The position numbers and the translations under genes are program-made. Source: a virus. Taken from it: a stretch of DNA of 64,000 bases. Where the stretch lies: the IMG/VR virus record IMGVR_UViG_3300009151_000031, one strand, 5' to 3'. Shown one piece after another: positions 7,479-20,983 of this stretch (position 1 is its first letter; each line of letters begins with the position of its first letter). The notes below the pieces were generated by a model that was not told the origin of the DNA, did no database searches, and saw only the letters and a program-made list of their open reading frames with translations.

Positions 7479-7541
7479 ATTAATCTAGCCCAAACGGGCT
7501 AAAATGATAAATAAAAGTAAGAACTTCAGGAGATTTCCCAC

Positions 7542-8513
7542 ATGAATCAACCACGTAAAATCCGTTGGCTATTAGAACACGAACCAGTTGAGCTTTTCTT
7601 ACGCACAGCTAAAGAGTTTGACAAGCGTATTCGCGCTCTAACAAACGACGAAATCCAAGTAGAAATGTATAAAAAAGAAGAATACCAAGCTAAATTTGGT
7701 GTTGCTAAAGAAATGATGGATTCAGTAGGCCTAATGCACTCTGGCGATATTGAAATGACTCAAACACAAATCGGCAACGTTGGTCAGTGGTACTGCCCAG
7801 ATTTCTTTGCATTAGAAATGCCATTCTTGTTTGATAGCCATGAACACGCTACTCGTGTTCTTGATGGCCAAATTGGTGAACGCCTATTAGACACCATTGA
7901 GCAAAATGCAAGTGCCAAAGGTTTAGCATTTACATACTCAGGTGGTTATCGTGTGTTTGCATCCAATGACAAACTAACAACAGCCGAAGACTTAAAAGGT
8001 CTAAATTGTTTGACTGACATCAGTGCAGTTCGTATTGATACAGCCAAAGCATTTGGTTTAAATGTAGTTCCATTCAAAGATGCCACCTTAGAAGGCGGTC
8101 AAATTGAGATTCTAAATGATCGTTACGAAGCAAGCCAAACACGTGAAACAACATTGCCACGTTATGAAGCCGAAGCGTACCATGCAGGTCATCACCACAT
8201 TGGTGTTACTAACCACAGCATGTACTTGACTACTATTCTAGTTAACAAAGAGTTCTTTGCAAGTTTAACAGCGGACCAACAGGTCGCAATGAAACAAGTT
8301 GCTATGGAAGTTGCCAAGTTAGAGCGTGAATGGTCGGTGACTGATGCAGACACATTGGCTAACAACACAGTTAAACACGCTGAAATGGGTATTACCTATA
8401 CAGAGTTTGCTGATAGCGAAGTGGCCAAATTGAAACAAGCAGTTGAGCCATTGTACGAAAAATATCGTGCGATTTTTAGCCCATTGCTGATTGATAACAT
8501 TCGCTCTGCCTAA
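7542..8513 (+). CDS. TRAP/DctP-family solute-binding protein paralog 1, no signal peptide
   Basis: F..R..T..EIQVE, ALEMPFLFDS.EHA.RVLDG, YSGGYRV, DLKGL, LTTILVNKEFFASLTADQQ. Confidence 0.8.
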   Translation: MNQPRKIRWLLEHEPVELFLRTAKEFDKRIRALTNDEIQVEMYKKEEYQAKFGVAKEMMDSVGLMHSGDIEMTQTQIGNVGQWYCPDFFALEMPFLFDSHEHATRVLDGQIGERLLDTIEQNASAKGLAFTYSGGYRVFASNDKLTTAEDLKGLNCLTDISAVRIDTAKAFGLNVVPFKDATLEGGQIEILNDRYEASQTRETTLPRYEAEAYHAGHHHIGVTNHSMYLTTILVNKEFFASLTADQQVAMKQVAMEVAKLEREWSVTDADTLANNTVKHAEMGITYTEFADSEVAKLKQAVEPLYEKYRAIFSPLLIDNIRSA

Positions 8514-8521
8514 TTAGCCCT

Positions 8522-9145
8522 TTGAAGTATCCTGAAAAACAATTCGAGTTGTATGACAAGAATTGTTTTTCTACGACTAGCTGGCAAGAAATATTTTCTG
8601 GACGTAGAGTTCTGATTTGTTCTATTGTGCGTCCTCCTTTGTGTTTTAATCAAAATTATATAATAGATTTACAAATTTACAGAGAAATGTACAAGTTGCT
8701 TGGGGTAGATGAAGTCTACTTACTAAGCCGTTCTCGTCTTGGATTAGTCAGTTTATTAAATCGAACAACAATACCTTGCATGGCAGATGTAAATTCAGAA
8801 TTTGCATTGCATTTGAACAGTCTGGTCAATACAAAAGAATACAGTAAAAATCATTTGTCATCGTTCTGGGCATATCAGGTATTAATCAACGACGGCGAAG
8901 TGGAACAGATCACACAACAACCTCTAGAAAATTATCTGGCCACCATGCTCAAGGATACCAAGAACATTGCCGCACTTAAAGCAATTGGATTAAAAAACGA
9001 AAAGTTAATTTGGACACCGACTTTTTTGACACGAACTATTAAATTGGCCAGAGACATTTTTTACTACCGATTGCACCCAAACATCGAGCTCAAAAAACAT
9101 TTATTCTCAACTTATCCAAACATACTTGACAATAAAGATAAATAA
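8522..9145 (+). CDS. Degenerate Prx5/redoxin-fold protein 1 (TTG start)
   Basis: EIFSGRRVLI, LGVDEVYLLS, MADVNSEF, WAYQVLINDGEVEQ align with Prx5 scaffold. Confidence 0.55.
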   Translation: MKYPEKQFELYDKNCFSTTSWQEIFSGRRVLICSIVRPPLCFNQNYIIDLQIYREMYKLLGVDEVYLLSRSRLGLVSLLNRTTIPCMADVNSEFALHLNSLVNTKEYSKNHLSSFWAYQVLINDGEVEQITQQPLENYLATMLKDTKNIAALKAIGLKNEKLIWTPTFLTRTIKLARDIFYYRLHPNIELKKHLFSTYPNILDNKDK

Positions 9146-9154
9146 ATGTATAAT
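9126..9154 (+). promoter_or_regulatory. sigma70 promoter driving leader/attenuator
   Basis: TTGACA-17 nt-TATAAT, overlapping end of upstream gene. Confidence 0.85.
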
Positions 9155-9164
9155 TGATAACATT

Positions 9165-9293
9165 ATGACACTAAGAACTTGTAAACATCTACCATCCATA
9201 CAGCCAACACTAGGTATGTTAGCCTATTGGCCTGCGAATGAAGTGTTTACATCAATTAATAGTGATCGTGAATACAGAGAGGGTCTCAATTAG
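9165..9293 (+). CDS. Putative 42-aa attenuator leader peptide MTLRTCKHLPSIQPTLGMLAYWPANEVFTSINSDREYREGLN
   Basis: ATG 10 nt after -10 box (near-leaderless), TAG inside antiterminator stem; too short for ORF track. Confidence 0.7.
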   Translation: MTLRTCKHLPSIQPTLGMLAYWPANEVFTSINSDREYREGLN

Positions 9294-9351
9294 AGTATTG
9301 TAGTTTACCATATTTTAATCGAGACCCTGGACTAAACACCCAGGGTTTTTT
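9280..9351 (+). terminator. Mutually exclusive antiterminator (9280-9328) and intrinsic terminator (9323-9351)
   Basis: AGGGTCTC/GAGACCCT closes a ~22-bp hairpin; ACCCTGG/CCAGGGT stem plus U6 uses the same ACCCT. Confidence 0.8.
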
Positions 9352-9370
9352 GTTTATAAAGGAGAAAGAA

Positions 9371-9547
9371 ATGTCGCATAAAATTAATAAAAATGAGTAT
9401 TCGCAATTTATTCTTTCCCGTGAAGAAAAGGTTGCATTAATGGAAGCAAAAATTGCAAGAGCGGAAGCTCAAGTAAAGGCGTTAGCAGAAATTGTAAAAG
9501 TAAAAGCAAAGGAATCTGCAAGGGGGTCGAAATACACCTCACGCTGA
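9371..9547 (+). CDS. Small coiled-coil protein, first gene after attenuator
   Basis: RBS AAGGAGA, ATG 9371, EEKVALMEAKIARAEAQVKALAE heptads. Confidence 0.7.
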   Translation: MSHKINKNEYSQFILSREEKVALMEAKIARAEAQVKALAEIVKVKAKESARGSKYTSR

Positions 9548-9609
9548 TAAATGGATTGAGGTTATGTTAAGTACAGGCACGTTTTTTTCGTGTACTATAT
9601 TTGATAAAC

Positions 9610-9960
9610 CTGAGTAAGTGTGTAAAGAGGAAACGAGGTCCTCGCTGGGCACTATAAACATCTAGCAAACGGGCGGACAGGATACATAAAAGCCGGGCGA
9701 TAACCGGTTAGTAAGACTCCTGGGTAGGGTACTATCCCTATCATATCCTGTAGCAATACAGGGTATTCTAAAGCATATTAGATGAGAGCGTCCAAAGGTC
9801 CTGAACACCTTGTGGGACAGGGCACAGGAATCACCGTGACACTAGTATGTTTTATAATACCCTTTAGAAGAACACGCCCAAGCACCGCACCGATAAAGCG
9901 GACTGCCAGAGCAACCGTCACATAAACGGCCGCTGTTATCCAACACAGCAACTAAAGGGT
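9610..9960 (+). ncRNA. Candidate large multi-branched structured RNA
   Basis: No ORF, GC-richer, nested stems GGGCG/CGCCC, CAGGATA/TATCCTG, GGGTATT/AATACCC and at least six hairpins; boundaries approximate. Confidence 0.6.
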
Positions 9961-9970
9961 AGACTTATAT

Positions 9971-10055
9971 GGAGGAACGGCGCAGATGGCGGGGCGCGGC
10001 AGACTGTAAATCTGTTCTCTAGGGCTAGTTGGTTCGAATCCATCTTCCTCCACCA
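9971..10055 (+). tRNA. trnY: tRNA-Tyr(GTA), atypical C8 and D loop
   Basis: GCAGA-CTGTAAA-TCTGT, long variable arm, CCA. Confidence 0.88.
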
Positions 10056-10136
10056 CAAATCCTGAATTTTAATAAATATATTGAGCAGTATTTCAAATTG
10101 CACATAAATACATAATAAAATCCCAGGAGATTGTTG

Positions 10137-11084
10137 ATGCAAAAAACAAATAAAATTAAGTGGCTAATCGCACACGAGCCGGTACATCTTTTCTTACGTA
10201 CAGCAGAAGCATTTGCCGCTGATGTTAAAGCAAAAACCAACGGTGAGATTGATATTGAAATTTATACAGCAACAGAATATGCCAATAAATTCCACAATGG
10301 TCACAAAGAAAACCCATTGACACATATGGAAAATGGCACGTTAGAGATGAGCCAATTGCATATCAGTCAGTTATGGAAATACAATGCTCCATCATTTATG
10401 GCTCTTGAAATGCCATTCTTGTTTAGCGATCATGACCATGCTACCCGTGTATTGGAAGGCAACATTGGTCAAGACATGCTAGCAAGTTTGAAAGAAAAAT
10501 CACCAGCACGTGGACTAGCGTTCACATACAGCGGCGGCTATCGTGTCATGGTCAGTGATACCGAAGTTAACGAAATAGCTGACTTCCGTAATATGAAGTT
10601 CTATACAGGCACAAACCCAATTGGTATGGATACTATCGAAGTTATCGGTGGCCAACCCGATCCACACGCTATTGACCATTTTTGGCACAGCGTTACTGCT
10701 AATGGTATCAAACACGATGCAATCGATACAACAATTCCACGTGTTTTAGCCACAGTTGACAAACTAAGCAAGCGTTTTATCACTGACACCAAGCACAGCA
10801 TGTTTTTGACAAGCATTATTGTTAGTGAAGCATGGTGGAACACACTAAGCGAAGAGACAAAAGAAATTTTGGCCACTGCCGCAACCGATGCCGCACGTTT
10901 AGAGCGTAAGTGGTCAGTTGAAGACAGCAACCATGTTATTGCCAATGCTGTAGAATTGGGCTTAGAATATAAAGAACTAAGCAAAGAAGATCAATCCAAG
11001 TTCCAGGCACTAACAGAACCATTGTACCAAAAGTATGAATCTATGTTTATGCCAGGTTTAGTTAACGGAATTATCCGCGGTTAA
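10137..11084 (+). CDS. TRAP/DctP-family solute-binding protein paralog 2, no signal peptide
   Basis: HEPVHLFLRTA, ALEMPFLFSDHDHATRVLEG, YSGGYRV, FLTSIIVSEAWWNTLSEE. Confidence 0.8.
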   Translation: MQKTNKIKWLIAHEPVHLFLRTAEAFAADVKAKTNGEIDIEIYTATEYANKFHNGHKENPLTHMENGTLEMSQLHISQLWKYNAPSFMALEMPFLFSDHDHATRVLEGNIGQDMLASLKEKSPARGLAFTYSGGYRVMVSDTEVNEIADFRNMKFYTGTNPIGMDTIEVIGGQPDPHAIDHFWHSVTANGIKHDAIDTTIPRVLATVDKLSKRFITDTKHSMFLTSIIVSEAWWNTLSEETKEILATAATDAARLERKWSVEDSNHVIANAVELGLEYKELSKEDQSKFQALTEPLYQKYESMFMPGLVNGIIRG

Positions 11085-11090
11085 TAATCG

Positions 11091-11119
11091 TTGCAATAGT
11101 TTTAGTTTTAGTATATAAT
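11091..11119 (+). promoter_or_regulatory. sigma70 promoter for redoxin-fold gene 2 (leaderless)
   Basis: TTGCAA-17 nt-TATAAT; ATG 8 nt downstream, no SD. Confidence 0.7.
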
Positions 11120-11127
11120 CAGACTCT

Positions 11128-11580
11128 ATGAAAGATAATCTTTTAGAGTCTGATTCCTTTTGTGCAAAACGAATTCTGGTATTTGGTATTAATAGAATTC
11201 AAAGCCATCCTACAATAGATCATGTTAAGACCATTGATGCTATGCACGATGAATTTTTAGCACATGGCATAGACGAAATACATTTTATTTCTATTTGTGA
11301 TTTTTTATTGTTTGATCCAATGATGACCAAATTGGCACCACATTGCAAGTCTACTCAATTGACTGATACAACAGCGTTACAAAAAATGTTCAGTAAAAAA
11401 GGTCATCCTAGATACCTTTGTGAATATTGGCAGTTTGCAGCCGTTGTTAATAAACAACAGGTCGAATTCTATGCAGAGCAACCGTTTGTGGCAAAGTTTG
11501 GCCCAGACACCAGAGCTGATATTTATAGCAACGTGAGTGCAGAAAAAGTTCTAGCATGGTTGTCCAATAAATCAGTTTAA
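11128..11580 (+). CDS. Degenerate Prx5/redoxin-fold protein 2
   Basis: KRILVFG, HGIDEIHFISICD, WQFAAVVNKQQVEFYAEQP, YSNVSAEKVLAWL. Confidence 0.55.
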   Translation: MKDNLLESDSFCAKRILVFGINRIQSHPTIDHVKTIDAMHDEFLAHGIDEIHFISICDFLLFDPMMTKLAPHCKSTQLTDTTALQKMFSKKGHPRYLCEYWQFAAVVNKQQVEFYAEQPFVAKFGPDTRADIYSNVSAEKVLAWLSNKSV

Positions 11581-11588
11581 TGTACAAT
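11560..11588 (+). promoter_or_regulatory. sigma70 promoter restarting tRNA transcription
   Basis: TTGTCC-17 nt-TACAAT across the stop codon. Confidence 0.7.
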
Positions 11589-11612
11589 TGATACATCAAG
11601 TAAGAAATTACA

Positions 11613-11624
11613 CGCTCTTTAAAA
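11613..11624 (+). promoter_or_regulatory. rrn-like boxA antitermination element
   Basis: CGCTCTTTAAAA vs rrn boxA TGCTCTTTAACA, about 20 nt after predicted TSS. Confidence 0.7.
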
Positions 11625-11653
11625 ATTTAAACCATAGAACCCTGTGAAGGGTG

Positions 11654-11737
11654 CTATACAAAAATACACAATGACCAAACTCGGGTTCATCCGTGAGGTC
11701 AAGTAATTGATCCTATATCTTGTGTATTTTTGTATAG
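11654..11737 (+). ncRNA. Closed-stem structured element
   Basis: Perfect 18-bp stem CTATACAAAAATACACAA/TTGTGTATTTTTGTATAG around TGACC/GGTCA hairpin. Confidence 0.55.
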
Positions 11738-11828
11738 TCGAAAGAATTGGCACCCTAAGAAGTCCATTAGAGGCCTGACGCCCCTGTAAATCAATCAATA
11801 CTGTTTACGAACCGGGTCACTAAATTTT

Positions 11829-11905
11829 GGAGAAGTAGCTCAGTTGGTTAGAGTGCCTGCCTGTCACGCAGGAAGTCGCGGGTTCGAGTCCCGTCTTTTC
11901 CGCCA
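11829..11905 (+). tRNA. trnD: tRNA-Asp(GTC)
   Basis: CCTGC-CTGTCAC-GCAGG, G73, CCA. Confidence 0.95.
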
Positions 11906-11909
11906 AATT

Positions 11910-11985
11910 GCTCGGTTCGTCTATCGGTCTAGGACACCGCCCTTTCACGGCGGGAAGAGGGGTTCGATTCCCCTACCGAGTACCA
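11910..11985 (+). tRNA. trnE: tRNA-Glu(TTC)
   Basis: CCGCC-CTTTCAC-GGCGG, CCA. Confidence 0.95.
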
Positions 11986-11992
11986 ATGTTAT

Positions 11993-12067
11993 GCAGGATT
12001 AATTCAGTGGTAGAATGTCTCGTTGCCAACGAGAATGTCAGGAGTTCGACCCTCCTATCCTGCTCCA
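11993..12067 (+). tRNA. trnG: tRNA-Gly(GCC)
   Basis: TCTCG-TTGCCAA-CGAGA, U73, CCA. Confidence 0.95.
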
Positions 12068-12073
12068 AGTTAG

Positions 12074-12149
12074 GTATCCTTAGCTCAATTGGCAGAGCGT
12101 TGGTCTCCAAAACCAAAGGTTCGCGGTTCGAGGCCGTGAGGGTACGCCA
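12074..12149 (+). tRNA. trnW: tRNA-Trp(CCA)
   Basis: TTGGT-CTCCAAA-ACCAA, G73, CCA. Confidence 0.92.
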
Positions 12150-12155
12150 AGTTAG

Positions 12156-12269
12156 GTTTGTATAGTAGCTACAATGGAACACCGAGACACTTGCCAAAGT
12201 CGACTAATGCAAGGACCGGCCATGAAGAGTAGGGCTACCTCAGGTTCAAGCACTGAATACAAACACCCA
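12156..12269 (+). ncRNA. tRNA-like RNA: 8-bp acceptor + T arm, central rod instead of D/anticodon arms
   Basis: GTTTGTAT/ATACAAAC, TCAGG-TTCAAGC-ACTGA, inner GTAGC/GCTAC, ATGG/CCAT, CTTGC/GCAAG; ends ACCCA. Confidence 0.6.
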
Positions 12270-12276
12270 ATCCTAA

Positions 12277-12350
12277 GCGGGATTAGTTTAATGGTAAAAC
12301 AGCAGATTTCCAATCTTCGGTCAAGAGTTCGATTCTCTTATCCCGCTCCA
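12277..12350 (+). tRNA. trnG: tRNA-Gly(TCC)
   Basis: loop TTTCCAA, acceptor GCGGGAT/ATCCCGC, U73, CCA. Confidence 0.93.
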
Positions 12351-12359
12351 TTTTAACAT

Positions 12360-12563
12360 ATGACATTAAACGATTTAAAAGAAAAAGACCAGGCAGTGAT
12401 ACTCAGTGTCACCAACGAGCGTTTACAGCAAATGGGTCTTGTTCCTACAAGAACTGTAACTGTTTTAAGACGCATGGCCTGTTGTCTTCACATACGTGTG
12501 GGTTCCACTGAATGGGCCATACGTGATCAAGACGCTCAGTCAGTAACGATTATTCCCCGATAG
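12360..12563 (+). CDS. feoA: FeoA-family SH3-like protein
   Basis: LNDLKEKDQAVILSV, RLQQMGLVP, V.VLRR, IRVGSTEWAIR. Confidence 0.7.
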   Translation: MTLNDLKEKDQAVILSVTNERLQQMGLVPTRTVTVLRRMACCLHIRVGSTEWAIRDQDAQSVTIIPR

Positions 12564-12628
12564 CTCAGCGGTAGAGCAGTAGACTGTTAATCTATTGGTC
12601 GGTGGTTCGATCCCACCTTGGGGAGCCA
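12554..12628 (+). tRNA. trnN: tRNA-Asn(GTT)
   Basis: GTAGA-CTGTTAA-TCTAT, G73, CCA. Confidence 0.95.
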
Positions 12629-12635
12629 AAATCAT

Positions 12636-12713
12636 ATAGCGGTGGCAGAGTGGTCAATTGCACGGGATTGCAAATCCCGAAAACCGTGAGTTCAAATCTC
12701 ACCCGCTATTCCA
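12636..12713 (+). tRNA. trnC: tRNA-Cys(GCA)
   Basis: CGGGA-TTGCAAA-TCCCG, U73, CCA. Confidence 0.93.
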
Positions 12714-12741
12714 ATAAATCTTTTTAATGTATAATAGGTAT

Positions 12742-13050
12742 ATGATGAATAAATTAATCCGTGATGGTCAAGTTGCTGTACTAGTAAGTCCAGGATATGG
12801 TGCTGGCTGGTACTCGTGGCATTCAATTGAAGAACTGGTCTACGATCCTAGCATAGTAGAGTGGTTAGAACAAGGTGAAATGCCAAAAATTCAAGCATAC
12901 TTGGCCTTAAAATACAAAGATGAGTATTTTGGTGGCCTAGAAGATTTAGTAGTAATGTGGGTACCTGAAGGAGCTCGGTTTCGTATTAAAGAATATGACG
13001 GAGCAGAGAGCTTGGTACTTGAATCACAAGAACGCTGGATGACAGCATAA
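12742..13050 (+). CDS. Hypothetical protein (start probably 12742)
   Basis: VAVLVSPGYGAGWYSW, FRIKEYDGAESL; ATG 6 nt after TATAAT. Confidence 0.7.
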   Translation: MMNKLIRDGQVAVLVSPGYGAGWYSWHSIEELVYDPSIVEWLEQGEMPKIQAYLALKYKDEYFGGLEDLVVMWVPEGARFRIKEYDGAESLVLESQERWMTA

Positions 13051-13059
13051 GGAGGCCGT

Positions 13060-13524
13060 ATGTCCTGGATTGAAAATGTAGCGGCTGTAGATGTGTCTAG
13101 CGGATTCCATCATGCGGCTGGTCCTAACAGTATGCTGATTAGTATTGCTGACTGTGGTAGTTGGCGCCCAGAATCAAAGCACGAATTCAAGGAGCGTCAC
13201 AACTTTGAGTTTCTTGATATTGAGCTTAACGATTTTGCTTTAGAAGAAGCAATGCGTTGTAGCCAAGAGCAAGCAGATGAATTAGTTCGTTTGCTACAAC
13301 ATGCACTGGCTAATCGTATGAATGTGGTTGTACATTGTACCGCTGGCATTTGTAGATCCGGTGCAGTAACAGAAGTTGGAGTTATGTTAGGTTTTGATGA
13401 TACTGAACGGTTTCGTAGTCCTAATTTGTTAGTAAAACATCGTATGATGAAAGCCCTTGGGTGGACATACAATGAAAACGAAAAGCCAAACATTGATGAC
13501 TGGCGTACTTTTAGGAGTGTCTGA
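13060..13524 (+). CDS. Cys-based (PTP/dual-specificity) phosphatase
   Basis: VHCTAGICRSG = HCx5R P-loop; RBS AAGGAGG. Confidence 0.8.
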   Translation: MSWIENVAAVDVSSGFHHAAGPNSMLISIADCGSWRPESKHEFKERHNFEFLDIELNDFALEEAMRCSQEQADELVRLLQHALANRMNVVVHCTAGICRSGAVTEVGVMLGFDDTERFRSPNLLVKHRMMKALGWTYNENEKPNIDDWRTFRSV

Positions 13525-13721
13525 TGACAATTAATGCTATTTCACAATATAATAATAAAATATTTAATTTGATGGCTGTAAAGCAGTTGGATTTTAGACA
13601 TGAAGAACTTCGCTTAGAAGCAGTTCGAGTAAAAGAACAGCTTGAAGAAAATGAGCAAAAACGAATTGAAATGAATCGCCGGATGAATCGGCCCGGACAA
13701 AATGTTGATAAACTAGCGTAA
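13524..13721 (+). CDS. Small basic coiled-coil hypothetical protein
   Basis: TGATG overlap; ends PGQNVDKLA. Confidence 0.6.
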   Translation: MTINAISQYNNKIFNLMAVKQLDFRHEELRLEAVRVKEQLEENEQKRIEMNRRMNRPGQNVDKLA

Positions 13722-13743
13722 CTCAAATTGAAAGGAGTATAAT

Positions 13744-14346
13744 ATGCCAGCAGTATTTTTAGTAAGCGACACGCACTTTGGTCATGCCGGTGTATGCCGT
13801 TTTACCCGCAACGATGGTGTTACAAAACTTCGCCCATGGGATGATGCAGACGAAATGGATGAATTCATGGTCAAGGCCTGGAACGAACGTGTTCGTCCTA
13901 ACGATAAAGTTTATCACTTAGGCGATGTAGTTATTAACCGTAAAAGTCTTGCTATTATGCGTAGGCTCAACGGGGATAAAGTTCTTATCCGTGGTAACCA
14001 CGATATCTTTAAGGACACTGACTATCGTGAACATTTCCGTGAACTTCGTGCATACCATGTGATGAATGGAATGATTCTTAGTCACATTCCTGTACACGTA
14101 GAGTCACTTGGTCGGTTTGGTGTTAACATTCACGGACACTTACACGCAAATCGTGTTAAGAAAATTCGTGGAGTAAACGCCAAGACAGGTGAACTTCTGT
14201 ACAGTGATGAACCAGATGTACGCTACCATTGCGTATGTGTGGAGCAAACTGACTTTGCACCTATTCTGTTTGAAGATGTTATCAAACGTATTGAAGCAGA
14301 AGGTGGTTCCGTGGGTTTCCGTAACGGTAACGGCCCTACGATGTAA
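13744..14346 (+). CDS. Calcineurin-like metallophosphoesterase
   Basis: SDTHFGH, YHLGDV, GNHD, LSHIP, HGHLH. Confidence 0.88.
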   Translation: MPAVFLVSDTHFGHAGVCRFTRNDGVTKLRPWDDADEMDEFMVKAWNERVRPNDKVYHLGDVVINRKSLAIMRRLNGDKVLIRGNHDIFKDTDYREHFRELRAYHVMNGMILSHIPVHVESLGRFGVNIHGHLHANRVKKIRGVNAKTGELLYSDEPDVRYHCVCVEQTDFAPILFEDVIKRIEAEGGSVGFRNGNGPTM

Positions 14347-14406
14347 GAACAGTCTTGGACACGCAGACTTTAAAGCGAGGTGGGAGTAGGTGGAAGCCCT
14401 GCATCT

Positions 14407-14515
14407 ATATAAAAACACATCTATGATCTGGGATATGCGAATGCGTACATATAAACTAAGATCCCACTTGTTAGTGGGTACGGGAGTGGGAATCTCCCTA
14501 GGTGTGTTTCTATAT
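14407..14515 (+). ncRNA. Closed-stem three-hairpin element abutting tRNA-Met
   Basis: 17-nt outer stem (15 WC, 1 GU, 1 mismatch) enclosing GATCT/AGATC, CCCAC/GTGGG, GGGAG/CTCCC. Confidence 0.55.
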
Positions 14516-14590
14516 GGAAATATAGCACAGCGGTAGTGCATCGCCTTCATACGGCGCAGGTCAGTAGTTCAAATCTACTTATTTCCACCA
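14516..14590 (+). tRNA. trnM: tRNA-Met(CAT), elongator type
   Basis: loop TTCATAC, paired G1-C72, A73, CCA. Confidence 0.8.
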
Positions 14591-14594
14591 ATTA

Positions 14595-14673
14595 CGGAGT
14601 GTAGGAAAGTCTGGCTTAATCCGCCTCGTTTGGGACGAGGAGACCGAAGGTTCGAATCCTTCCATTCCGACCA
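14595..14673 (+). tRNA. trnP: tRNA-Pro(TGG)
   Basis: CCTCG-TTTGGGA-CGAGG, C1-G72, A73, CCA. Confidence 0.93.
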
Positions 14674-14678
14674 TATAT

Positions 14679-14754
14679 AGGACTTTAGCTCAGTTGGTAG
14701 AGCGTCTGCCTTACACGCAGAATGTCGTCAGTTCGAACCTGGCAAGTCCTACCA
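14679..14754 (+). tRNA. trnV: tRNA-Val(TAC)
   Basis: TCTGC-CTTACAC-GCAGA, CCA. Confidence 0.95.
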
Positions 14755-14757
14755 TTT

Positions 14758-14833
14758 GCCCCTATAGCTCAGTTGGTAGAGCACCGCCTTGATAAGGCGT
14801 AGGTCCCTGGTTCGAGTCCAGGTGGAGGCACCA
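14758..14833 (+). tRNA. trnI: tRNA-Ile(GAT)
   Basis: loop TTGATAA, A73, CCA; one C-A mismatch in acceptor. Confidence 0.9.
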
Positions 14834-14837
14834 ATAT

Positions 14838-14914
14838 CGGCCTTTAACTCAATTGGATAGAGTGCAAGTCTTCGAAACTTGAAGTTGGGAGTTCGAATCT
14901 CTCAGGGCCGGCCA
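14838..14914 (+). tRNA. trnR: tRNA-Arg(TCG)
   Basis: CAAGT-CTTCGAA-ACTTG, CCA. Confidence 0.92.
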
Positions 14915-14920
14915 AATTAC

Positions 14921-14996
14921 AGGACGTTAGCTCAGCCGGTAGAGCAGTAGACTTTTAATCTATTGGTCGTGGGTTCGATCCCCGCACGTCCTACCA
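14921..14996 (+). tRNA. trnK: tRNA-Lys(TTT)
   Basis: GTAGA-CTTTTAA-TCTAT, A73, CCA. Confidence 0.95.
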
Positions 14997-14998
14997 AT

Positions 14999-15074
14999 GC
15001 TACTTTAGCTGATGTGGTCATAGCGGCGGTTTGAAGAACCGTTGAACTAGGTTCGATTCCTAGAGGTAGCACCA
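14999..15074 (+). tRNA. trnF: tRNA-Phe(GAA)
   Basis: GCGGT-TTGAAGA-ACCGT, CCA. Confidence 0.92.
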
Positions 15075-15083
15075 AATTATTGT

Positions 15084-15157
15084 TGGGGGTTAGTGTAGCG
15101 GTAACACTACAGACTTTGACTCTGTCATCACTGGTTCGATCCCAGTACCCTCTGCCA
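15084..15157 (+). tRNA. trnQ: tRNA-Gln(TTG)
   Basis: ACAGA-CTTTGAC-TCTGT, 1-72 mismatch, G73, CCA. Confidence 0.93.
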
Positions 15158-15163
15158 AATTAC

Positions 15164-15238
15164 CTCGCCTTAGTATAATGGATAATACAGTAGGCTTCTA
15201 CCCTACGAATGTGGGTTCGATTCCTGCAGGCGAGGCCA
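15164..15238 (+). tRNA. trnR: tRNA-Arg(TCT)
   Basis: GTAGG-CTTCTAC-CCTAC, G73, CCA. Confidence 0.93.
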
Positions 15239-15244
15239 AACAAT

Positions 15245-15320
15245 GGTGACTATAGTGTAAAGGTTAACACCACGGATTGTGATTCCGTTAATATGGGTTC
15301 GATTCCCATTAGTTACCCCA
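15245..15320 (+). tRNA. trnH: tRNA-His(GTG)
   Basis: G-1/C73, ACGGA-TTGTGAT-TCCGT, CCA. Confidence 0.95.
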
Positions 15321-15328
15321 ATCAATAT

Positions 15329-15406
15329 ACCCCTGTAGGCAAATTGGTAAAGCCAACTCTCTTAAAAGGAGTAGTCTTCCCTGTTCGAATCAGGGCAGGG
15401 GTACCA
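15329..15406 (+). tRNA. tRNA with TAA anticodon and short variable region (atypical Leu?)
   Basis: ACTCT-CTTAAAA-GGAGT, 6-nt variable region AGTCTT, acceptor ACCCCTG/CAGGGGT, A73, CCA. Confidence 0.75.
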
Positions 15407-15411
15407 ATCAA

Positions 15412-15501
15412 GGAAGTGTGTCTGAGTCCGGCTTAAGGAAACAGTCTTGAAAACTGTCGGCTGTAAAAGGTCCGTGGGTTCGAATCCCACCGCTTCCGCC
15501 A
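15412..15501 (+). tRNA. trnS: tRNA-Ser(TGA)
   Basis: ACAGT-CTTGAAA-ACTGT, long variable arm, G73, CCA. Confidence 0.95.
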
Positions 15502-16803
15502 TTAATAAATGCTTAACTTGCCTTCGATGCAATGCAAGTATCGTGTTTGATCGTTCTTAAAATCCTGCGCTTTAACTGCGCCAGTACTAGGAATACTACT
15601 GTCACCGATGTAATACATTGGACTAATGTATTGCTTAAGGTCTCGTAATTGTCCGTCTAGAGTTTTTGTAATGTATCTAGCATCTAAGTTAGTAGACATA
15701 AATTCTACACCGGCTTCCCAAATCTGATATTGTTTAGTATCGATAAAATTTTGAAAGAACCAATTATCCATTTCTGCTCTGATGCCGGTAGTAGGTTTAG
15801 CAACTTGGAAGGTATTAAAGTCATAGTCGGGATAAACAATAGCACGTACAAGACCTTCGTACGTAGTGCGGTTATAGTGATCGCCATTGGGCCAGCGTAC
15901 AGCACTTTGGAAATTATAATGCATGGGCATTTCAAACCATTGTCGTACCATGTGTGCTTGTTTAGTTAACATTGCACAACTATCTGGTGACCAGTAAAAC
16001 AGTTCTGTTGTCACATTGGTAATATCACCCATGTCTGCGCTGTTGTGATTAGCAAGTGGATCTTGGAAATACAAGAACCACCGACAGTCTTTGACACACA
16101 GCTTGGGTTTATCGCAGCCAAATACCATGGCAATACGTATATTGCAATCAACCAAGTTCTTTTGTTCTGCACTACTGGCCACAGTATGCTTTGACCATTG
16201 TCCAGGCTGTAATGCATGACGAGTGCGAAAGATCCAAGACTCATCTGTACCTTGACGATCGATCAAATCGTCTGTGTAATCGTGTATGGTAATTTTTGTA
16301 GCAGGATAGTTTGCGGCAATCCAATTCATTATTGGTTTGACAGCAAAATCAAACTCGCTGAGATGATTGGCAGAACTGGTATCCCAGGGATTGCCTGATG
16401 CGTTTTTATCTGCTTGTTTTGGGTAACGATAGATAACTTCGTCTAAGTGTATTCCGTTAAGCAAAAACGCAAATGCTACTGTGGCACTATCGGCACCACC
16501 GCTTAACTCTAGACGTACATAGTCATAGTTATCGCGAATAGATTGTGCGCGACGTCGATACAGTTCACGTATATCTTCTTCGGGCTCAATATGCCAGGCA
16601 TGTTTTAAGAATACATCTTCGTTAAATAGCCAGCGCACAGGATCGTTATTGAGATTGTGTGCATGACCGGGAAGTTTTGAACCAGCTAAGATTGCTTGGT
16701 TTTTATTATAAAATACTTCATTACCTAAAGTATAGTAGCCAAGTTTTTTGTTTGGTTCAAATTTAATACCACCTGCAGAGGTGTGTTCAATTTTAGGTAG
16801 CAT
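15502..16803 (-). CDS. PP-loop (adenine nucleotide alpha hydrolase) family protein
   Basis: RLELSGGADSATV motif; TAAATA motifs upstream on minus strand near 16840-16850. Confidence 0.65.
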   Translation of the reverse strand: MLPKIEHTSAGGIKFEPNKKLGYYTLGNEVFYNKNQAILAGSKLPGHAHNLNNDPVRWLFNEDVFLKHAWHIEPEEDIRELYRRRAQSIRDNYDYVRLELSGGADSATVAFAFLLNGIHLDEVIYRYPKQADKNASGNPWDTSSANHLSEFDFAVKPIMNWIAANYPATKITIHDYTDDLIDRQGTDESWIFRTRHALQPGQWSKHTVASSAEQKNLVDCNIRIAMVFGCDKPKLCVKDCRWFLYFQDPLANHNSADMGDITNVTTELFYWSPDSCAMLTKQAHMVRQWFEMPMHYNFQSAVRWPNGDHYNRTTYEGLVRAIVYPDYDFNTFQVAKPTTGIRAEMDNWFFQNFIDTKQYQIWEAGVEFMSTNLDARYITKTLDGQLRDLKQYISPMYYIGDSSIPSTGAVKAQDFKNDQTRYLHCIEGKLSIY

Positions 16804-16829
16804 AGTTGATTATAACAGATAAGTAAGTG

Positions 16830-16858
16830 TTGACGCAAGTATTTATTTAATATATAAT
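16830..16858 (+). promoter_or_regulatory. sigma70 promoter, back-to-back with minus-strand late motif
   Basis: TTGACG-17 nt-TATAAT. Confidence 0.75.
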
Positions 16859-16879
16859 ACATCAATAATGAAAGGTGAT

Positions 16880-17023
16880 ATGAGCCATAACGACACACTC
16901 AATCGAGCATACGGTAATATCCCAAAAGAAGTCGGATACACAGTTGACTTCAGTTTCATGCCATTTCATCGCCCAGTTAAGTATTTTTGGCTTACCTGGA
17001 TTGTAAGAAAGTTTTTTAGATAA
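16880..17023 (+). CDS. 47-aa hypothetical protein MSHNDTLNRAYGNIPKEVG...WIVRKFFR
   Basis: RBS AAAGGTG; below ORF-track cutoff; alternative ATG 16868. Confidence 0.6.
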   Translation: MSHNDTLNRAYGNIPKEVGYTVDFSFMPFHRPVKYFWLTWIVRKFFR

Positions 17024-17028
17024 TCTAA

Positions 17029-17103
17029 CGCGGGGTACGTCAGTGGTAGACCGCCAGGCTCATAACCTGGAAGACGGAGGTTCGAATCCTTCCCCCGCAA
17101 CCA
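17029..17103 (+). tRNA. trnfM: Initiator tRNA-fMet(CAT)
   Basis: C1-A72 mismatch, CCAGG-CTCATAA-CCTGG, CCA. Confidence 0.9.
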
Positions 17104-17106
17104 AAT

Positions 17107-18186
17107 ATGTTACACCTAATACTACACCCATTAAAACGCCCAGCCGAAAAACAAGTTGATCTACTTGTTGCAACCTTAGACATGCACGGAATTGATTACG
17201 TTAAATGTAGTATTGACAAGGTTCCAGCAGGAGCCACAATCATCACAGATTGTTTTATAATGGAAACTCCTTGTGGAGATCCGGGCAATGATATTGCTAG
17301 TAATATTATAGATCATGCCGCAAGTCACAATAACAAAATTGTATTTTATTATCCTAGCGAAAGCTACGCAACATTATCGGCAAGTTTTTGCCCTACCGCA
17401 GAAGCAATACAAGAAAAAAATGTCAAGGGATATTTAGTAAAGTGTGGTGACTGGGATATAGATGGTTACGTAAAAAATTATAACATGCCAGAGTTTTTTG
17501 CATGGATACTTAATAATGAATTTAATCGTACCAGATTAGACTATACACACAGTCTGATAGATACTATGACAAAGTCACACAAGTTCCTATTCTTTAACGG
17601 AGAGTTCCGCAACAATAGAGAACGCTTCTTTGAATTGTTTAAAGAGGCTGGATTACTTGAATCAAGTATATGGAGTCATAGGTCGGGCAAGAGTGCAGAA
17701 GGCTTCGGTCCTGACAAAGATTGGCCGGATCCATTTATACATCCAGACTTTAGATTTTATGCATATTATCCTAGTCATTATTATGACACTAGTATAAGCA
17801 TTGTGAGTGAAACTACACAAACAGAATTCTTCCCTACGGAAAAGACCTATAAGAGTTTAATGCTAGGACATCCATTTGCTGTGTATGGCGGGCAACATAG
17901 TCTACGTAAACTGCAAGCATTAGGATTTGAAACGTTTGGCGATAGCATAGATGAAACGTATGACAACTGCGAGTGGCCAGAAGAACGTGCCAATGTTCTA
18001 ATAGAAAGTCTAAAAAATTGCAGTATTCCACGACCCAGTAACCATAATAGGCTACAATTTCAGAAAGTGGCTAATTCAGCATACAATCATCTGTTAAATA
18101 TCTTGCAAGATATAGATAATAATGTTATAATAAAAGAGAACTTTGCAGTCAGTAGTTCTGTTTTGAACAAGTATTTTTTAAATTAA
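17107..18186 (+). CDS. Putative glycosyltransferase-like protein
   Basis: C-terminal SIVSET..FPTEKTYKSL...PF.VYG...LRKL..LGFETF..IDETYD, GT10-like by inference. Confidence 0.45.
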   Translation: MLHLILHPLKRPAEKQVDLLVATLDMHGIDYVKCSIDKVPAGATIITDCFIMETPCGDPGNDIASNIIDHAASHNNKIVFYYPSESYATLSASFCPTAEAIQEKNVKGYLVKCGDWDIDGYVKNYNMPEFFAWILNNEFNRTRLDYTHSLIDTMTKSHKFLFFNGEFRNNRERFFELFKEAGLLESSIWSHRSGKSAEGFGPDKDWPDPFIHPDFRFYAYYPSHYYDTSISIVSETTQTEFFPTEKTYKSLMLGHPFAVYGGQHSLRKLQALGFETFGDSIDETYDNCEWPEERANVLIESLKNCSIPRPSNHNRLQFQKVANSAYNHLLNILQDIDNNVIIKENFAVSSSVLNKYFLN

Positions 18187-18195
18187 AGGATTACA

Positions 18196-18423
18196 ATGCC
18201 ACAGTACATCAGCCGCGGAGCATCAATTGACACAGAAAAATGTGTTGCAGAAGCAGGTGGAAATAGATTTGATTTAGTCATTATGGCCACTCAACGTGCC
18301 AGAGAAATTAAACAACGTAATCAACATAGTGTAAAGCATGAGCATCTACATGGTGTAGTTACAGCACTAATAGAAATACAAGATGGTAATGTAGATCCCA
18401 ATTGGAAACAAAAAGTTCGATGA
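18196..18423 (+). CDS. rpoZ: RNA polymerase omega subunit homolog
   Basis: GNRFDLVIMATQRAREI and VTALIEIQDG match omega NRFDLV..A..RAR / ALREIEEG. Confidence 0.8.
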   Translation: MPQYISRGASIDTEKCVAEAGGNRFDLVIMATQRAREIKQRNQHSVKHEHLHGVVTALIEIQDGNVDPNWKQKVR

Positions 18424-18857
18424 AACCAAAGTTTCAACAGCTATATATAACTATAGCAAGTACAGTAGCAACAATGAGTACAGCACGTCGCCTACAAGTT
18501 GGTGCTATTGTGGTCAAAGATGATCGTGTTATTAGTATGGGCTACAATGGTATGCCTAGTGGGTGGGACAATAATTGCGAAGATGAAATATGTTGGCCCA
18601 ATGGGGAAATAAAGTTTTTAACAACTAAACCGGAGGTACTTCATGCTGAAACTAATGCAATCGCTAAGTTGGCAAGATCAAACGAGTCTGGCCTTGGTGC
18701 TACTATGTTCATTACTCACTCACCTTGCTTGGACTGTGCCAAATTGGTTTACCAATCTGGTATCAATACTGTTTATTATCGCAATAGTTATCGTAACGAA
18801 GAAGGCATACAATTCCTGGAAAAAGCAGGAGTAGAAGTAGTAAAATTAGAAGATTAA
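18420..18857 (+). CDS. dCMP deaminase (ComEB-like)
   Basis: GYNGMPSG, HAETNAI, SPCLDCAK zinc motifs. Confidence 0.9.
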   Translation: MKPKFQQLYITIASTVATMSTARRLQVGAIVVKDDRVISMGYNGMPSGWDNNCEDEICWPNGEIKFLTTKPEVLHAETNAIAKLARSNESGLGATMFITHSPCLDCAKLVYQSGINTVYYRNSYRNEEGIQFLEKAGVEVVKLED

Positions 18858-18858
18858 C

Positions 18859-18934
18859 GGGGGTGTAGCTCATTTGGGAGAGCGCCTGCTTTGCAAGCAG
18901 GATGTAGCAAGTTCGATCCTTGTCACCTCCACCA
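18859..18934 (+). tRNA. trnA: tRNA-Ala(TGC)
   Basis: G3-U70, CCTGC-TTTGCAA-GCAGG, CCA. Confidence 0.95.
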
Positions 18935-18940
18935 AAATAA

Positions 18941-19028
18941 GGAAAGTTGGCCGAGTGGTTAAGGCAACGGTTTGCTAAACCGTCGTCCCGAAAGGGGCGC
19001 ATAGGTTCGAATCCTATACTTTCCGCCA
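18941..19028 (+). tRNA. trnS: tRNA-Ser(GCT)
   Basis: ACGGT-TTGCTAA-ACCGT, long variable arm, G73, CCA. Confidence 0.95.
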
Positions 19029-19093
19029 AATTGTATCAAAAAAGTGTAAACGACAATAAATAAGTACATATACACTTACCAGGAGTTTCCCCC

Positions 19094-20059
19094 ATGAGTC
19101 AAACACGTACAATACGTTGGGTTTTATACCACGAACCAGTTGATTTGTTTTTGCGTACAGCCAAGGCATTCAGCGAAGAAATCGCTCGTACAACCAACGG
19201 CCGTTTAGCAGTTGAAATTTTAACAACACAAGAGTTTGCTGACAAATACAACAAAGATGCTGGCCTAGAACCATTGACTTGGATGCAGTCAGGCGATGCA
19301 GAAATGACACAAGTTCAAGTTGTGCATTTAGGTATTTGGCATGCTCCAGAGTTTTTTGCACTGGAATTGCCATTCTTGTTTGATAGTCACGAACATGCTA
19401 CTCGCGTACTAGAAGGAGATATTGGTGAAACTATGCTAGGCGATCTAGATAGCAAGACTCCGGTACACGGTTTAGCATTCACATATTCAGGCGGTTATCG
19501 TTGTTTAGCACTCGACCGTGAAATTAGTAAAGCTGAAGATCTTCAAGGTCTTAAGATGGTGACTAATACAAACCCAGTATCAATTGATACAGCAGAAGCA
19601 TTTGGATGCGTTGCAGTACCAGTCAATCTAAAAGAAGCAGTAAACGTTAATAGAAACAACGACAACAATCACAACGGCAACAACGCAATCGAAACAACAT
19701 TGCCACGTTATGAAAAAGAAGCCAAGAGTGCAGTACATACACACGTAAGCAATACACGTCACAGCATGTATCTAACAAGTATTTTAATTAGTAAGGACTT
19801 CTGGGCAAGTTTAAGTGCAGAAGATCAAGCGTCTATCAAGGCAGCGGCAATGCACAGTTCTGCATTAGAACGCCATTGGACTGTTAATGATAGTGCCAAG
19901 ATTGCTAACAGCACAGAAGAACAAGCTAAAATGGGCATTAGTTATACTGAGTTTGCTGATAGCGAACGTGCTAAATTAAAAGAATTAGTACAGCCAATGT
20001 ACAACAAGTATCGCCAAATCTTTGGCGTTGATCTAGTAGATGGAATTATCAAGGGATAA
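19094..20059 (+). CDS. TRAP/DctP-family solute-binding protein paralog 3, no signal peptide
   Basis: HEPVDLFLRTA, ALELPFLFDSHEHATRVLEG, YSGGYRC, DLQGLK, ISKDFWASLSAEDQ. Confidence 0.8.
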   Translation: MSQTRTIRWVLYHEPVDLFLRTAKAFSEEIARTTNGRLAVEILTTQEFADKYNKDAGLEPLTWMQSGDAEMTQVQVVHLGIWHAPEFFALELPFLFDSHEHATRVLEGDIGETMLGDLDSKTPVHGLAFTYSGGYRCLALDREISKAEDLQGLKMVTNTNPVSIDTAEAFGCVAVPVNLKEAVNVNRNNDNNHNGNNAIETTLPRYEKEAKSAVHTHVSNTRHSMYLTSILISKDFWASLSAEDQASIKAAAMHSSALERHWTVNDSAKIANSTEEQAKMGISYTEFADSERAKLKELVQPMYNKYRQIFGVDLVDGIIKG

Positions 20060-20707
20060 ATGAAAGACTTTAGTTTTTCAATTCTTAAAAATAACGAAGT
20101 ACAAAAAATAACATTCCAGGACTTAGCCTTAAACAAGCGAGTCCTGGTTTGCTCTGTTGTCCGTATGCAAACCCATGTTTCGGATTTGTATGTTAAAGAA
20201 TTAATTAAGCAAACTACTAGTTACAAACAACAAGGCATTGACGAAGTTTATCTAATAAACTCATGCCATGGACTATTTGCACTTGCAAGATTTGATAAGA
20301 TATTTCCGGAAATTACAATGTTAGCAGATACTGATAATCAATTTGTAACGTGGATTAGTAGTACGGTAAACAAAGCTACGCAGACTATAGATAATTTATC
20401 AAAGTATTGGAGTTATCAAGTACTACTGAACAATGGCAAAATAGAGCAATTTTACGAACAGCCAACTGAAAATTATATTAGACATTTAATTAAGGCTGGA
20501 CACAAACCAAATTTGGCACACCAAAAGTTTTTTATAACCGAAGGCGACACAGTTGCATTACATCGCCCTGGGTTAAGTAGAGAAGAACAAAATACATTTG
20601 GACATTTGCCATTTGATGGTGCTCGGTGTACTCCGTTGGAGTTTATGTATTTTAATCTTTGTCCAAACACTAAATTAAATCAATATTTGCTTGACACACA
20701 GGTGTAA
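20060..20707 (+). CDS. Degenerate Prx5/redoxin-fold protein 3
   Basis: DLALNKRVLV, QGIDEVYLIN, MLADTDNQF, WSYQVLLNNGKIEQFYEQP. Confidence 0.55.
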   Translation: MKDFSFSILKNNEVQKITFQDLALNKRVLVCSVVRMQTHVSDLYVKELIKQTTSYKQQGIDEVYLINSCHGLFALARFDKIFPEITMLADTDNQFVTWISSTVNKATQTIDNLSKYWSYQVLLNNGKIEQFYEQPTENYIRHLIKAGHKPNLAHQKFFITEGDTVALHRPGLSREEQNTFGHLPFDGARCTPLEFMYFNLCPNTKLNQYLLDTQV

Positions 20708-20719
20708 CTAGTATATAAT
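20691..20719 (+). promoter_or_regulatory. sigma70 promoter for 256-nt RNA and tRNA-Thr
   Basis: TTGACA-17 nt-TATAAT. Confidence 0.85.
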
Positions 20720-20727
20720 TAATACAA

Positions 20728-20983
20728 GTAATAAGTTTGGGTACATGGTGTGGCGACCATCTGATACATGTGGTAGTCTTAGTAATAGTATGTAACACAC
20801 GACCCCGTGGCACTGATACTGCAAAATCGGGTACTCCCGAGGGTACAAGGAATTTTAAAACTATGAACAGGTGCAAGAGTCCATGAAAAAGCCTGTGAAG
20901 GCAAGCTATTTAGCCGAGTCGCTCTTGGTTAGCATTGTGGTCCACTGTCGAAAAGCAGATTTAGGTGTACCCAAACTTATTAC
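20728..20983 (+). ncRNA. Candidate 256-nt structured RNA with paired ends
   Basis: Perfect 18-bp terminal stem GTAATAAGTTTGGGTACA/TGTACCCAAACTTATTAC starting at predicted TSS; internal hairpins. Confidence 0.7.

Follow-up and report, generated by a model that had tools for sequence, protein, structure and literature searches.

A recurrent phage gene pair encoding a DctP-like binding protein and a peroxiredoxin-fold partner that lacks catalytic residues

A stretch of 64,000 nucleotides that is a portion of a large uncultured phage (IMG/VR record IMGVR_UViG_3300009151_000031; the whole stretch is called the window below) carries three two-gene cassettes, each encoding a DctP-like binding protein followed by a partner with a peroxiredoxin (Prx) fold, and the two genes stay together in nearly all of the related loci. 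Binding proteins of the TRAP (tripartite ATP-independent periplasmic) transporter type are textbook periplasmic shuttles, thought to act solely via a membrane partner. A tentative explanation for the phage genes, which we prefer while placing it slightly below an even chance, is that each cassette produces a heterodimer that stays in the cytoplasm, needs no transporter and binds a small ligand, with the Prx-fold partner in place of the membrane subunits DctQ and DctM (DctQM). The fold, the loss of motifs, the pairing, the co-divergence of the two proteins and the promoter box that enter this explanation were all computed.

Three gene pairs and their relatives

Gene pairs are present at 7542-9145, 10137-11580 and 19094-20707, where an earlier, sequence-only reading of the window had placed them. 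That reading also described a repeated cassette: the three copies are real, but they are not DNA repeats, and pairwise protein identities of 36-50% among the DctP-like proteins and 24-31% among the partners mark them, at the level of sequence, as ancient paralogs. The three cassettes contain the following features.

7345-7431, + strand: tRNA-Leu(taa), cassette 1 (ARAGORN)
7507-7513, + strand: ATAAATA box, cassette 1, T4-late-promoter-like, NATAAATA (motif and conservation in relatives)
7527-7532, + strand: CAGGAG ribosome-binding site, cassette 1 (motif)
7542-8513, + strand: DctP-like protein 1 (P0001), 323 amino acids, without signal peptide (PF03480 E 3e-35; phrog_31178; hydropathy)
8522-9145, + strand: Prx5-fold partner 1 (P0002), 207 amino acids, TTG start (phrog_2281 E 1e-7; alignment)
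9971-10055, + strand: tRNA-Tyr, cassette 2 (ARAGORN)
10104-10110, + strand: ATAAATA box, cassette 2 (motif and conservation)
10124-10129, + strand: CAGGAG ribosome-binding site, cassette 2 (motif)
10137-11084, + strand: DctP-like protein 2 (P0003), 315 amino acids (PF03480 E 2e-42, full length)
11128-11580, + strand: Prx5-fold partner 2, short form (P0004), 150 amino acids (phrog_2281 E 5e-8)
18941-19028, + strand: tRNA-Ser(gct), cassette 3 (ARAGORN)
19056-19062, + strand: ATAAATA box, cassette 3 (motif and conservation)
19080-19085, + strand: CAGGAG ribosome-binding site, cassette 3 (motif)
19094-20059, + strand: DctP-like protein 3 (P0005), 321 amino acids (PF03480 E 8e-35; AlphaFold2 model)
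20060-20707, + strand: Prx5-fold partner 3 (P0006), 215 amino acids (phrog_2281 E 4e-10; structural matches)

The start of DctP-like protein 2 was taken as ATG 10137 and not TTG 10131 because the Shine-Dalgarno spacing fits the ATG; P0003 is this protein as translated from 10131, and a public 315-amino-acid protein (P0038) is 100% identical to DctP-like protein 2. In cassettes 1 and 3 the second gene begins 1-9 nucleotides after the first, a spacing compatible with translational coupling: the junction sequences place the start of partner 1 at 8 nucleotides past the upstream stop codon, with no obvious ribosome-binding site, and the ATG of partner 3 directly against the upstream TAA. Cassette 2 has a 43-nucleotide spacer with a sigma-70-like TTGCAA-17-TATAAT at 11091-11119, which ends 8 nucleotides ahead of ATG 11128 with no ribosome-binding site after it; it may mark an internal promoter, with the start then near-leaderless, or have arisen by chance. 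Partner 2 is also without the long helical insert that is present in partners 1 and 3.

The pairing of the two genes is the strongest result of the analysis. Across 96 phage and metagenome loci with 117 DctP-like genes, a partner gene lies directly 3' of the DctP-like gene in 107 cases, at a gap of -25 to +72 nucleotides, and the conservation in relatives that the sequence-only reading had named as a check on its proposal is thereby borne out. The ten unpaired genes comprise three at contig ends, two artefacts of the choice of open reading frame (ORF) start, four pieces of a split gene and the first gene of one tandem pair. The four pieces represent one gene on two near-identical contigs (L062 and L065, both at 1989-2940), where a DctP-like gene is broken into two ORFs and stands partnerless upstream of an intact cassette; it is probably a decaying copy. 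Among divergent representatives of the partner family, a DctP-like gene precedes three of the four sampled, the contig of the fourth being too short upstream to tell. Tree distances of the DctP-like proteins and of their partners correlate with an r of 0.84, where the best of 500 permutations reached 0.08. Because the pairing is near-universal and the two trees correlate, the cassette duplicates and diverges as a unit. At least five subfamilies can be told apart by the length of the partner (about 150, 161-196 and 197-245 amino acids), three of which occur in the window. One metagenome collection alone contains at least 533 loci with phage-type DctP-like proteins, and there are about three cassette copies per genome.

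Binding protein, partner and modelled complex

The DctP-like proteins of the window match PF03480 at 120.9-146 bits (gathering cut-off 23.4) and NCBIfam TRAP_S1 at 84.7-120.4 bits (cut-off 50), and their best PHROG match is phrog_31178, a family of unknown function. An AlphaFold2 model of P0005, with a predicted local distance difference test (pLDDT) value of 92.9, has the two-lobe type II periplasmic-binding-protein fold and gives template-modelling (TM) scores of 0.76-0.82 to the solved TRAP binding proteins 4p47, SiaP and DctPAm. The DctP-like proteins of the phage resemble these in matching PF03480 over their full length, in the two-lobe fold (TM about 0.8), in keeping a counterpart of SiaP R127 and in the use of the same rim for a partner, which on the phage side is predicted. 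The phage proteins differ from them in having neither signal peptide nor DctQM, in replacing SiaP R147 by A, G, Y, I, V or L, and in having a soluble Prx-fold protein as their partner.

Signal peptides were called from the maximum 12-residue hydropathy within the first 36 residues. The window proteins begin about six residues ahead of strand 1, and their N-terminal maximum is 0.5-1.0; by N-terminal sequence and hydropathy, a signal peptide is found in 0 of 72 unique phage DctP-like homologs. In contrast, the TctC-like binding protein of a 360-kb related phage bears a classic signal peptide, so the lineage has an exported binding protein too, from a different family. Because the one family lacks signal peptides whereas the related phage's TctC-like protein has one, the phage DctP-like proteins are most likely cytoplasmic, in agreement with the sequence-only reading. 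In this relative (L007, 359,889 bp) the gene for the TctC-like protein belongs to a region, 1449-4881, that continues with a 391-amino-acid protein of unknown kind and then an AMP-binding ligase on the opposite strand.

The statement that the window holds neither DctQ nor DctM is upheld by the finding of no ORF there with more than three hydrophobic segments. As to dctQM elsewhere in the genome, which the same reading had left as a question, PF06808 and PF04290 gave no match in the related viral records searched (incomplete fragments of up to 180 kb). Its premise that TRAP binding proteins are secreted and need DctQM fails as a universal rule for this clade, in which signal-less cellular members exist.

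A further hallmark of the TRAP family is also lost. An arginine on strand 6, R147 in SiaP, holds the carboxylate group of the ligand and is conserved across 96.8% of the family (PMC5812351); 4p47 and 4n8y both read LKIR at this place in the alignment. The three window proteins have L, Y and V at the equivalent position (156 when numbered as in P0005), where A, G, Y and I prevail among the 72 phage proteins. The equivalent of SiaP R127 is retained as R136, invariant within FTYSGG(F/Y)R, and H13, R21, Q73, H99, H101, Y131, R205 and H223 are likewise invariant. Positions 12, 75, 156 and 179 are subfamily-specific and align with ligand contacts of SiaP, which gives substance to the earlier description of the paralogs as diversified; strict criteria for subfamily-determining columns returned almost nothing, and the pattern is found only at these equivalents of SiaP ligand contacts. 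A conserved polar core with variable contact positions suggests, from the alignments, related ligands with one common anchoring group.

Ordinary auxiliary transport, in which the binding proteins are exported and feed a DctQM of the host or phage, would agree with their family membership by sequence and with the signal peptides on most members of the cellular sister clade. It is nevertheless very improbable, since no phage member has a signal peptide although the lineage's TctC-like protein has one, the arginine filter is lost, neither the window nor related viral fragments hold DctQ or DctM, and the docking rim is predicted to be taken by the partner. Cyanophage PstS is an exported phage-encoded binding protein that works with a host membrane transporter; it and the cassette proteins are both phage-borne transporter-type binding proteins, but the latter appear cytoplasmic and transporter-independent. 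Orphan binding proteins of the TTT (tripartite tricarboxylate transporter) family, such as the Bordetella Bug proteins and AdpC, are without a cognate membrane component and have many paralogs (PMC5812351), but these are periplasmic members of the TctC family without a dedicated soluble partner.

All three partners match phrog_2281 ('peroxyredoxin') with E values from 1e-7 to 4e-10. A Pfam search of the three returned no family, and no Redoxin or AhpC-TSA match; one distant member of the partner family has a precomputed PF08534 match. Searched against the PDB, the partner-family profile finds the Prx5-type peroxiredoxin 1nm3 (E 1.7e-10), which is also the best Foldseek match of a P0006 model with a pLDDT of 89, and VIA aligns 150 residues of this model with 1xiy (Z 15.2, root-mean-square deviation 2.6). 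By both profile and structure matches, the partner has the thioredoxin-type Prx fold.

The catalytic residues of this fold are not kept. When P0006 is aligned with 1nm3, the proline, threonine and cysteine of the PxxxTxxC motif correspond to V34, Q37 and V40, and the equivalent of the peroxidatic cysteine is F in P0002 and P in P0004. The catalytic arginine is S118 in P0006, as W-R-Y of 1nm3 aligns with W117-S118-Y119, and this position lies outside the conserved columns of a 33-sequence partner alignment. No partner subfamily keeps the Pro, Thr and Cys of PxxxTxxC or the catalytic Arg. Across 72 partners, the only Cys column that reaches 30% is a strand position, C31, which is not peroxidatic; type 1 partners often bear a neighbouring Cys that is not equivalent to the peroxidatic one either. 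Because the motif residues and the catalytic arginine are all replaced, the term 'pseudo-peroxiredoxin' is accurate. The polar residues that are invariant in the partner are R27, R35, N124, E129 and Q134.

The closest comparison is with the Prx5-type and hybrid Prx5-glutaredoxin proteins (HI0572, 1nm3), with which the partners have the fold and a detectable sequence relation in common (E 1.7e-10; Z 14-15). They differ in the replaced Pro, Thr, Cys and Arg, in falling below Pfam thresholds and in the helical insert of the long forms, which spans 40-70 residues and contributes to the modelled interface described below. The family is small and divergent: at 50% identity it has 163 representatives in a set of 1.84 billion proteins. 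An exhaustive search with its profile found no DctP fusion, the long matches listed being true Redoxin/glutaredoxin multidomain proteins, and the weak tail of its matches consists of genuine Redoxin/glutaredoxin proteins. A feature search of the ESM Atlas gave only Redoxin/AhpC-like or unnamed clusters.

A model of the complex of P0005 with P0006 reached an interaction prediction score from aligned errors (ipSAE) of 0.87, and the best of three controls 0.00. Of 80 solved complexes, 58 attain the mark applied to this score, as do 2 of 110 mismatched pairs; with alignments of our own, as used here, these counts are approximate. The runs share at least 92% of contacts, with a partner pLDDT of at least 86, and the interface comprises 72-91 contacts. 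The model supports binding of the cognate proteins to each other, and thereby lends in silico support to the contact between binding protein and redoxin-fold partner that had been proposed from the sequence.

On the partner side, the modelled interface takes in residues 37-39 and 42 on either side of the ex-peroxidatic position 40, together with helix 69-81 and a C-terminal insert at 157-177. The binding protein contributes from both lobes (55-66, 80-88, 159-165, 176-181 and 304-310). From the alignment, and with the SiaP sequence as we take it to be, binding-protein residues 65-66 and 180-181 would correspond to D58/S60 and E172 of SiaP. Mutations of D58/S60 and E172 abolish docking to SiaQM and leave ligand binding unaffected (PMC9352664). 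The former Prx active-site face is predicted to lie on the very rim by which TRAP binding proteins dock onto their membrane transporter. Interface residues N160, D165, K305, Y306 and F310 are fixed in the phage proteins and variable in cellular relatives, and the invariant residues of the partner lie mostly outside the modelled interface.

Cellular relatives, expression and possible roles

A scan of species genomes identified 53 cellular loci with best identities of 35-40%, mainly in Bdellovibrionota and also in Elusimicrobia, Polyangiaceae, Terriglobia and Planctomycetota metagenome-assembled genomes. Members of this clade, which has the signature 'W-x-L-A-H-E-P', have 35 conserved positions in common with the phage proteins, and they resemble them further in that no DctQM adjoins them in the loci inspected and some are signal-less; a DctM match is missing in two of five cellular genomes searched, the completeness of which is unknown. 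They differ from the phage proteins in being mostly exported (clear signal peptides in most, a minority without), in having the strand-6 arginine in 31 of 41 cases, and in never occurring with a Prx-like gene: none lies near the DctP-like gene in any of the 53 loci, nor does a related conserved downstream partner.

The operons of the cellular relatives recurrently hold an NMT1-type binding protein with an ABC importer, an AMP-binding ligase with MBOAT acyltransferases, or an AsnB-like amidotransferase, the last standing beside signal-less members and the ligases and MBOAT proteins beside secreted ones. Many secreted Bdellovibrionota proteins (L096-L148) lie in a conserved neighbourhood with an AMP-binding ligase, two MBOAT acyltransferases, an unknown protein of about 350 amino acids and an NMT1-type ABC importer, an arrangement that we take to recall a Dlt-like surface-acylation system. 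In a tree with a Brevibacillus DctP outgroup the phage proteins form a monophyletic group (support 0.998) whose sister is the cellular clade. An origin within Bdellovibrionota was rejected, as the phage clade is not nested in the cellular clade when the root is assumed at the Brevibacillus DctP. The sister position and the features of the cellular clade place the loss of export and of the arginine, and the gain of the partner, along the phage stem.

These neighbourhoods bear on the idea of a two-subunit enzyme or substrate-delivery pair for a carboxylated or other anionic substrate such as a sugar acid, in which the partner catalyses or neighbouring enzymes, for example of a glycan-modification cluster, receive the substrate. 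Sugar-nucleotide/glycosyltransferase clusters stand next to type 3 and related cassettes, both in the window and in three separate relatives, the signal-less and secreted cellular relatives adjoin the AsnB-like and the ligase and MBOAT enzymes just named, several of the closest solved relatives were deposited as sugar-acid or sialic-acid binding proteins, and the partner has its invariant polar residues. We nonetheless consider this idea unlikely: the synteny may merely follow from a genome layout that is conserved within a single phage lineage, no sugar-modification genes adjoin cassettes 1 and 2, neither protein shows a recognisable catalytic motif and the invariant residues of the partner are mostly off the modelled interface.

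The sequences upstream of the cassettes point to how they may be expressed. ATAAATA occurs within 96 nucleotides upstream of 59 of 71 unique cassettes and TAAATA in 70 of 71, where background expectation per 96 nucleotides is 0.03 and 0.06, respectively; over the window as a whole, ATAAATA is present at the chance rate (17 seen, 17 expected). The box, which stands 20-35 nucleotides ahead of the start codon, mostly reads NATAAATA, the consensus for late promoters in T4 and T4-like phages (PMC2984593). A weak match (E 6e-6) to T4 gp55, the late sigma factor, is found in the close relative L156, at contig positions 48728-48928 inside a 295-amino-acid open frame. The leaders with ATAAATA and CAGGAG, as first noticed in the sequence-only reading, are present at all three window cassettes and conserved among relatives, and a T4-late-type box with a strong ribosome-binding site at nearly every cassette points to abundant late production. 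Four lake RNA libraries contain a few exact contigs of 151-168 nucleotides inside cassette genes (for example 8535-8685, 10332-10499, 10561-10711, 11462-11612 and 19786-19936); DNA carry-over is possible and contigs give no ranking of expression, so they were not used as evidence; nor do stretches without such contigs carry information.

A tRNA gene on the + strand ends 111, 82 and 66 nucleotides upstream of cassettes 1-3 (at 7431, 10055 and 19028), each with an encoded CCA, as had been reported for the window. As a defining trait of the cassettes, tRNA adjacency was rejected: it is seen at 22 of 65 unique cassettes elsewhere, and it belongs to the tRNA island of the lineage, not to the module.

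The late-type promoter and strong ribosome-binding site, like those of virion genes, would also suit a pair that has no small ligand and acts as a protein-binding scaffold, that is, a late structural, packaged or host-protein-targeting complex, for example virion-associated or an inhibitor of a host protein. The arginine filter is gone from all phage members and the modelled protein-protein interface is large, as such a role would have it. Yet about a dozen cleft-aligned polar residues are invariant across at least five subfamilies and the cellular relatives, which is hard to explain without a bound ligand and so counts against a scaffold, and there is no similarity to structural PHROG families; the probability of this alternative also appears low.

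Phage sponges such as Tad1, Tad2 and Acb2 are single small proteins that capture small molecules stoichiometrically in the infected cell. A role as sponge or sensor of small molecules by which the host signals immunity or alarm, with the partner as lid or adaptor and the paralogs covering several signals, would draw on the diversified paralogs, several to a genome, of a cytoplasmic binding fold, on high stoichiometric expression as suggested by the strong ribosome-binding sites, and on a phage-specific module whose partner is found in 0 of 53 cellular loci. We treat this as a minority reading, and quite an unlikely one, because of the late-type promoter, the metabolic context of the cellular relatives and the missing link to defence families in PADLOC and PHROG. 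Known counter-defence genes are usually made early, whereas the cassettes carry a T4-late-type box; PADLOC gave chance-level matches only, and the PHROG matches are not to counter-defence families. Most of the invariant residues are common to cellular relatives in transport and acyl-activation operons, and the module has been seen in just one lineage of large, uncultured and mostly freshwater phages. The bulk spent per ligand would be 36 kDa plus 17-25 kDa, and all the sponges known to us are far smaller. The folds of Tad1, Tad2 and Acb2 are unrelated to those of the cassette proteins, and a likeness in mode of working is a possibility only. The form of the idea in which the cassettes are two-protein traps for host small-molecule signals, with a transporter-type binding protein switched from its membrane transporter to a soluble dead-enzyme 'lid' that makes capture quasi-irreversible, three pairs for three signals and production in bulk (or packaging) by giant phages, is just as doubtful.

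In the explanation that we prefer, a cytoplasmic heterodimer for a small ligand, the first subunit would be a derived DctP-family protein from which the export signal and the strand-6 arginine have gone and in which the two-lobe fold and invariant polar residues are kept. The second would be a Prx5-fold protein without catalytic residues, whose former active-site face would span the binding protein from lobe to lobe. Complex and interface are those of the model; as the partner sits there on the DctQM-docking rim, it would replace the transporter as docking partner. Ligand binding, hand-over or locking, and timing are what we infer beyond this: the binding protein would close on a small and probably anionic metabolite of the host or the phage, and the partner would then stabilise the loaded state or take over the ligand. 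Given a common anchor-recognising core and a few differing specificity positions, the three pairs would handle related but distinct ligands. The cassettes would be separate transcription units, serving abundant production late in infection.

Several points weigh against this explanation. The complex is a model and not a measurement, and its contacts show no excess covariation over random inter-protein pairs (normalised mutual information 0.395 versus 0.381). Late timing is based on a motif and a weak sigma-factor match, and the pocket residues were assigned through alignment to SiaP, not from coordinates. With the strand-6 arginine absent, canonical carboxylate binding cannot be taken for granted, and perhaps no small molecule binds in the cleft.

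Genome setting and significance

Besides the cassettes, the window encodes replication genes, a ribonucleotide reductase, GroEL and a sugar-modification cluster, and 27 tRNA genes lie within 6914-21074 (ARAGORN). Its nearest relatives are metagenome contigs of 180-370 kb, for the most part from lake samples. Against deposited phages, megablast of positions 7000-21000 gave tRNA-sized matches only, and tblastn of P0005 and P0006 against 50,697 deposited phage records found no real homolog.

The sugar-modification cluster (22798-31414) contains two epimerase/dehydratases, a GT17 glycosyltransferase, a C-methyltransferase, an FkbM methyltransferase and a GT9-like protein, and is followed by GroEL at 31800-33419; similar clusters come after the cassette in the relatives L007, L149 and L150. 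Just upstream of cassette 3, at 18196-18857, a 75-amino-acid Rpb6/omega-like protein (PF01192, E 8e-9) overlaps the start of a cytidine/tRNA-deaminase-like gene, and this synteny is kept in L007 and L149. Within the tRNA island, 13060-14346 holds a dual-specificity-phosphatase-like gene and a metallophosphoesterase gene, the latter also kept in L007, L149 and L150. At the place of cassette 1, L002 has a tryptophan-halogenase-family gene (5799-7403; PF04820, E 1e-56), and the 247-kb relative L150 encodes a RuBisCO-large-subunit-like protein (13825-14978) and a peptide-chain-release-factor-like protein (PCRF/RF-1; 2855-3409).

A search of the literature, in which 'DctP' collides with 'dCTP', found nothing on a signal-less phage DctP or on a DctP/peroxiredoxin pair, and the database names of these proteins are automatic only ('TRAP-type C4-dicarboxylate transport system periplasmic component' and 'peroxiredoxin'). 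The cellular sister clade, with no adjoining TRAP transporter in the loci inspected, is equally uncharacterised. Within a family of transport proteins, an old and large phage-specific branch appears to have given up export, the selectivity filter formed by the arginine, and the transporter, and to have gained an obligate soluble partner of antioxidant-enzyme descent. If the heterodimer is confirmed, it would represent a new intracellular use of the binding-protein fold and a new pseudoenzyme role of the peroxiredoxin fold, and would provide a handle on a metabolite that giant freshwater phages hold or move late in infection.

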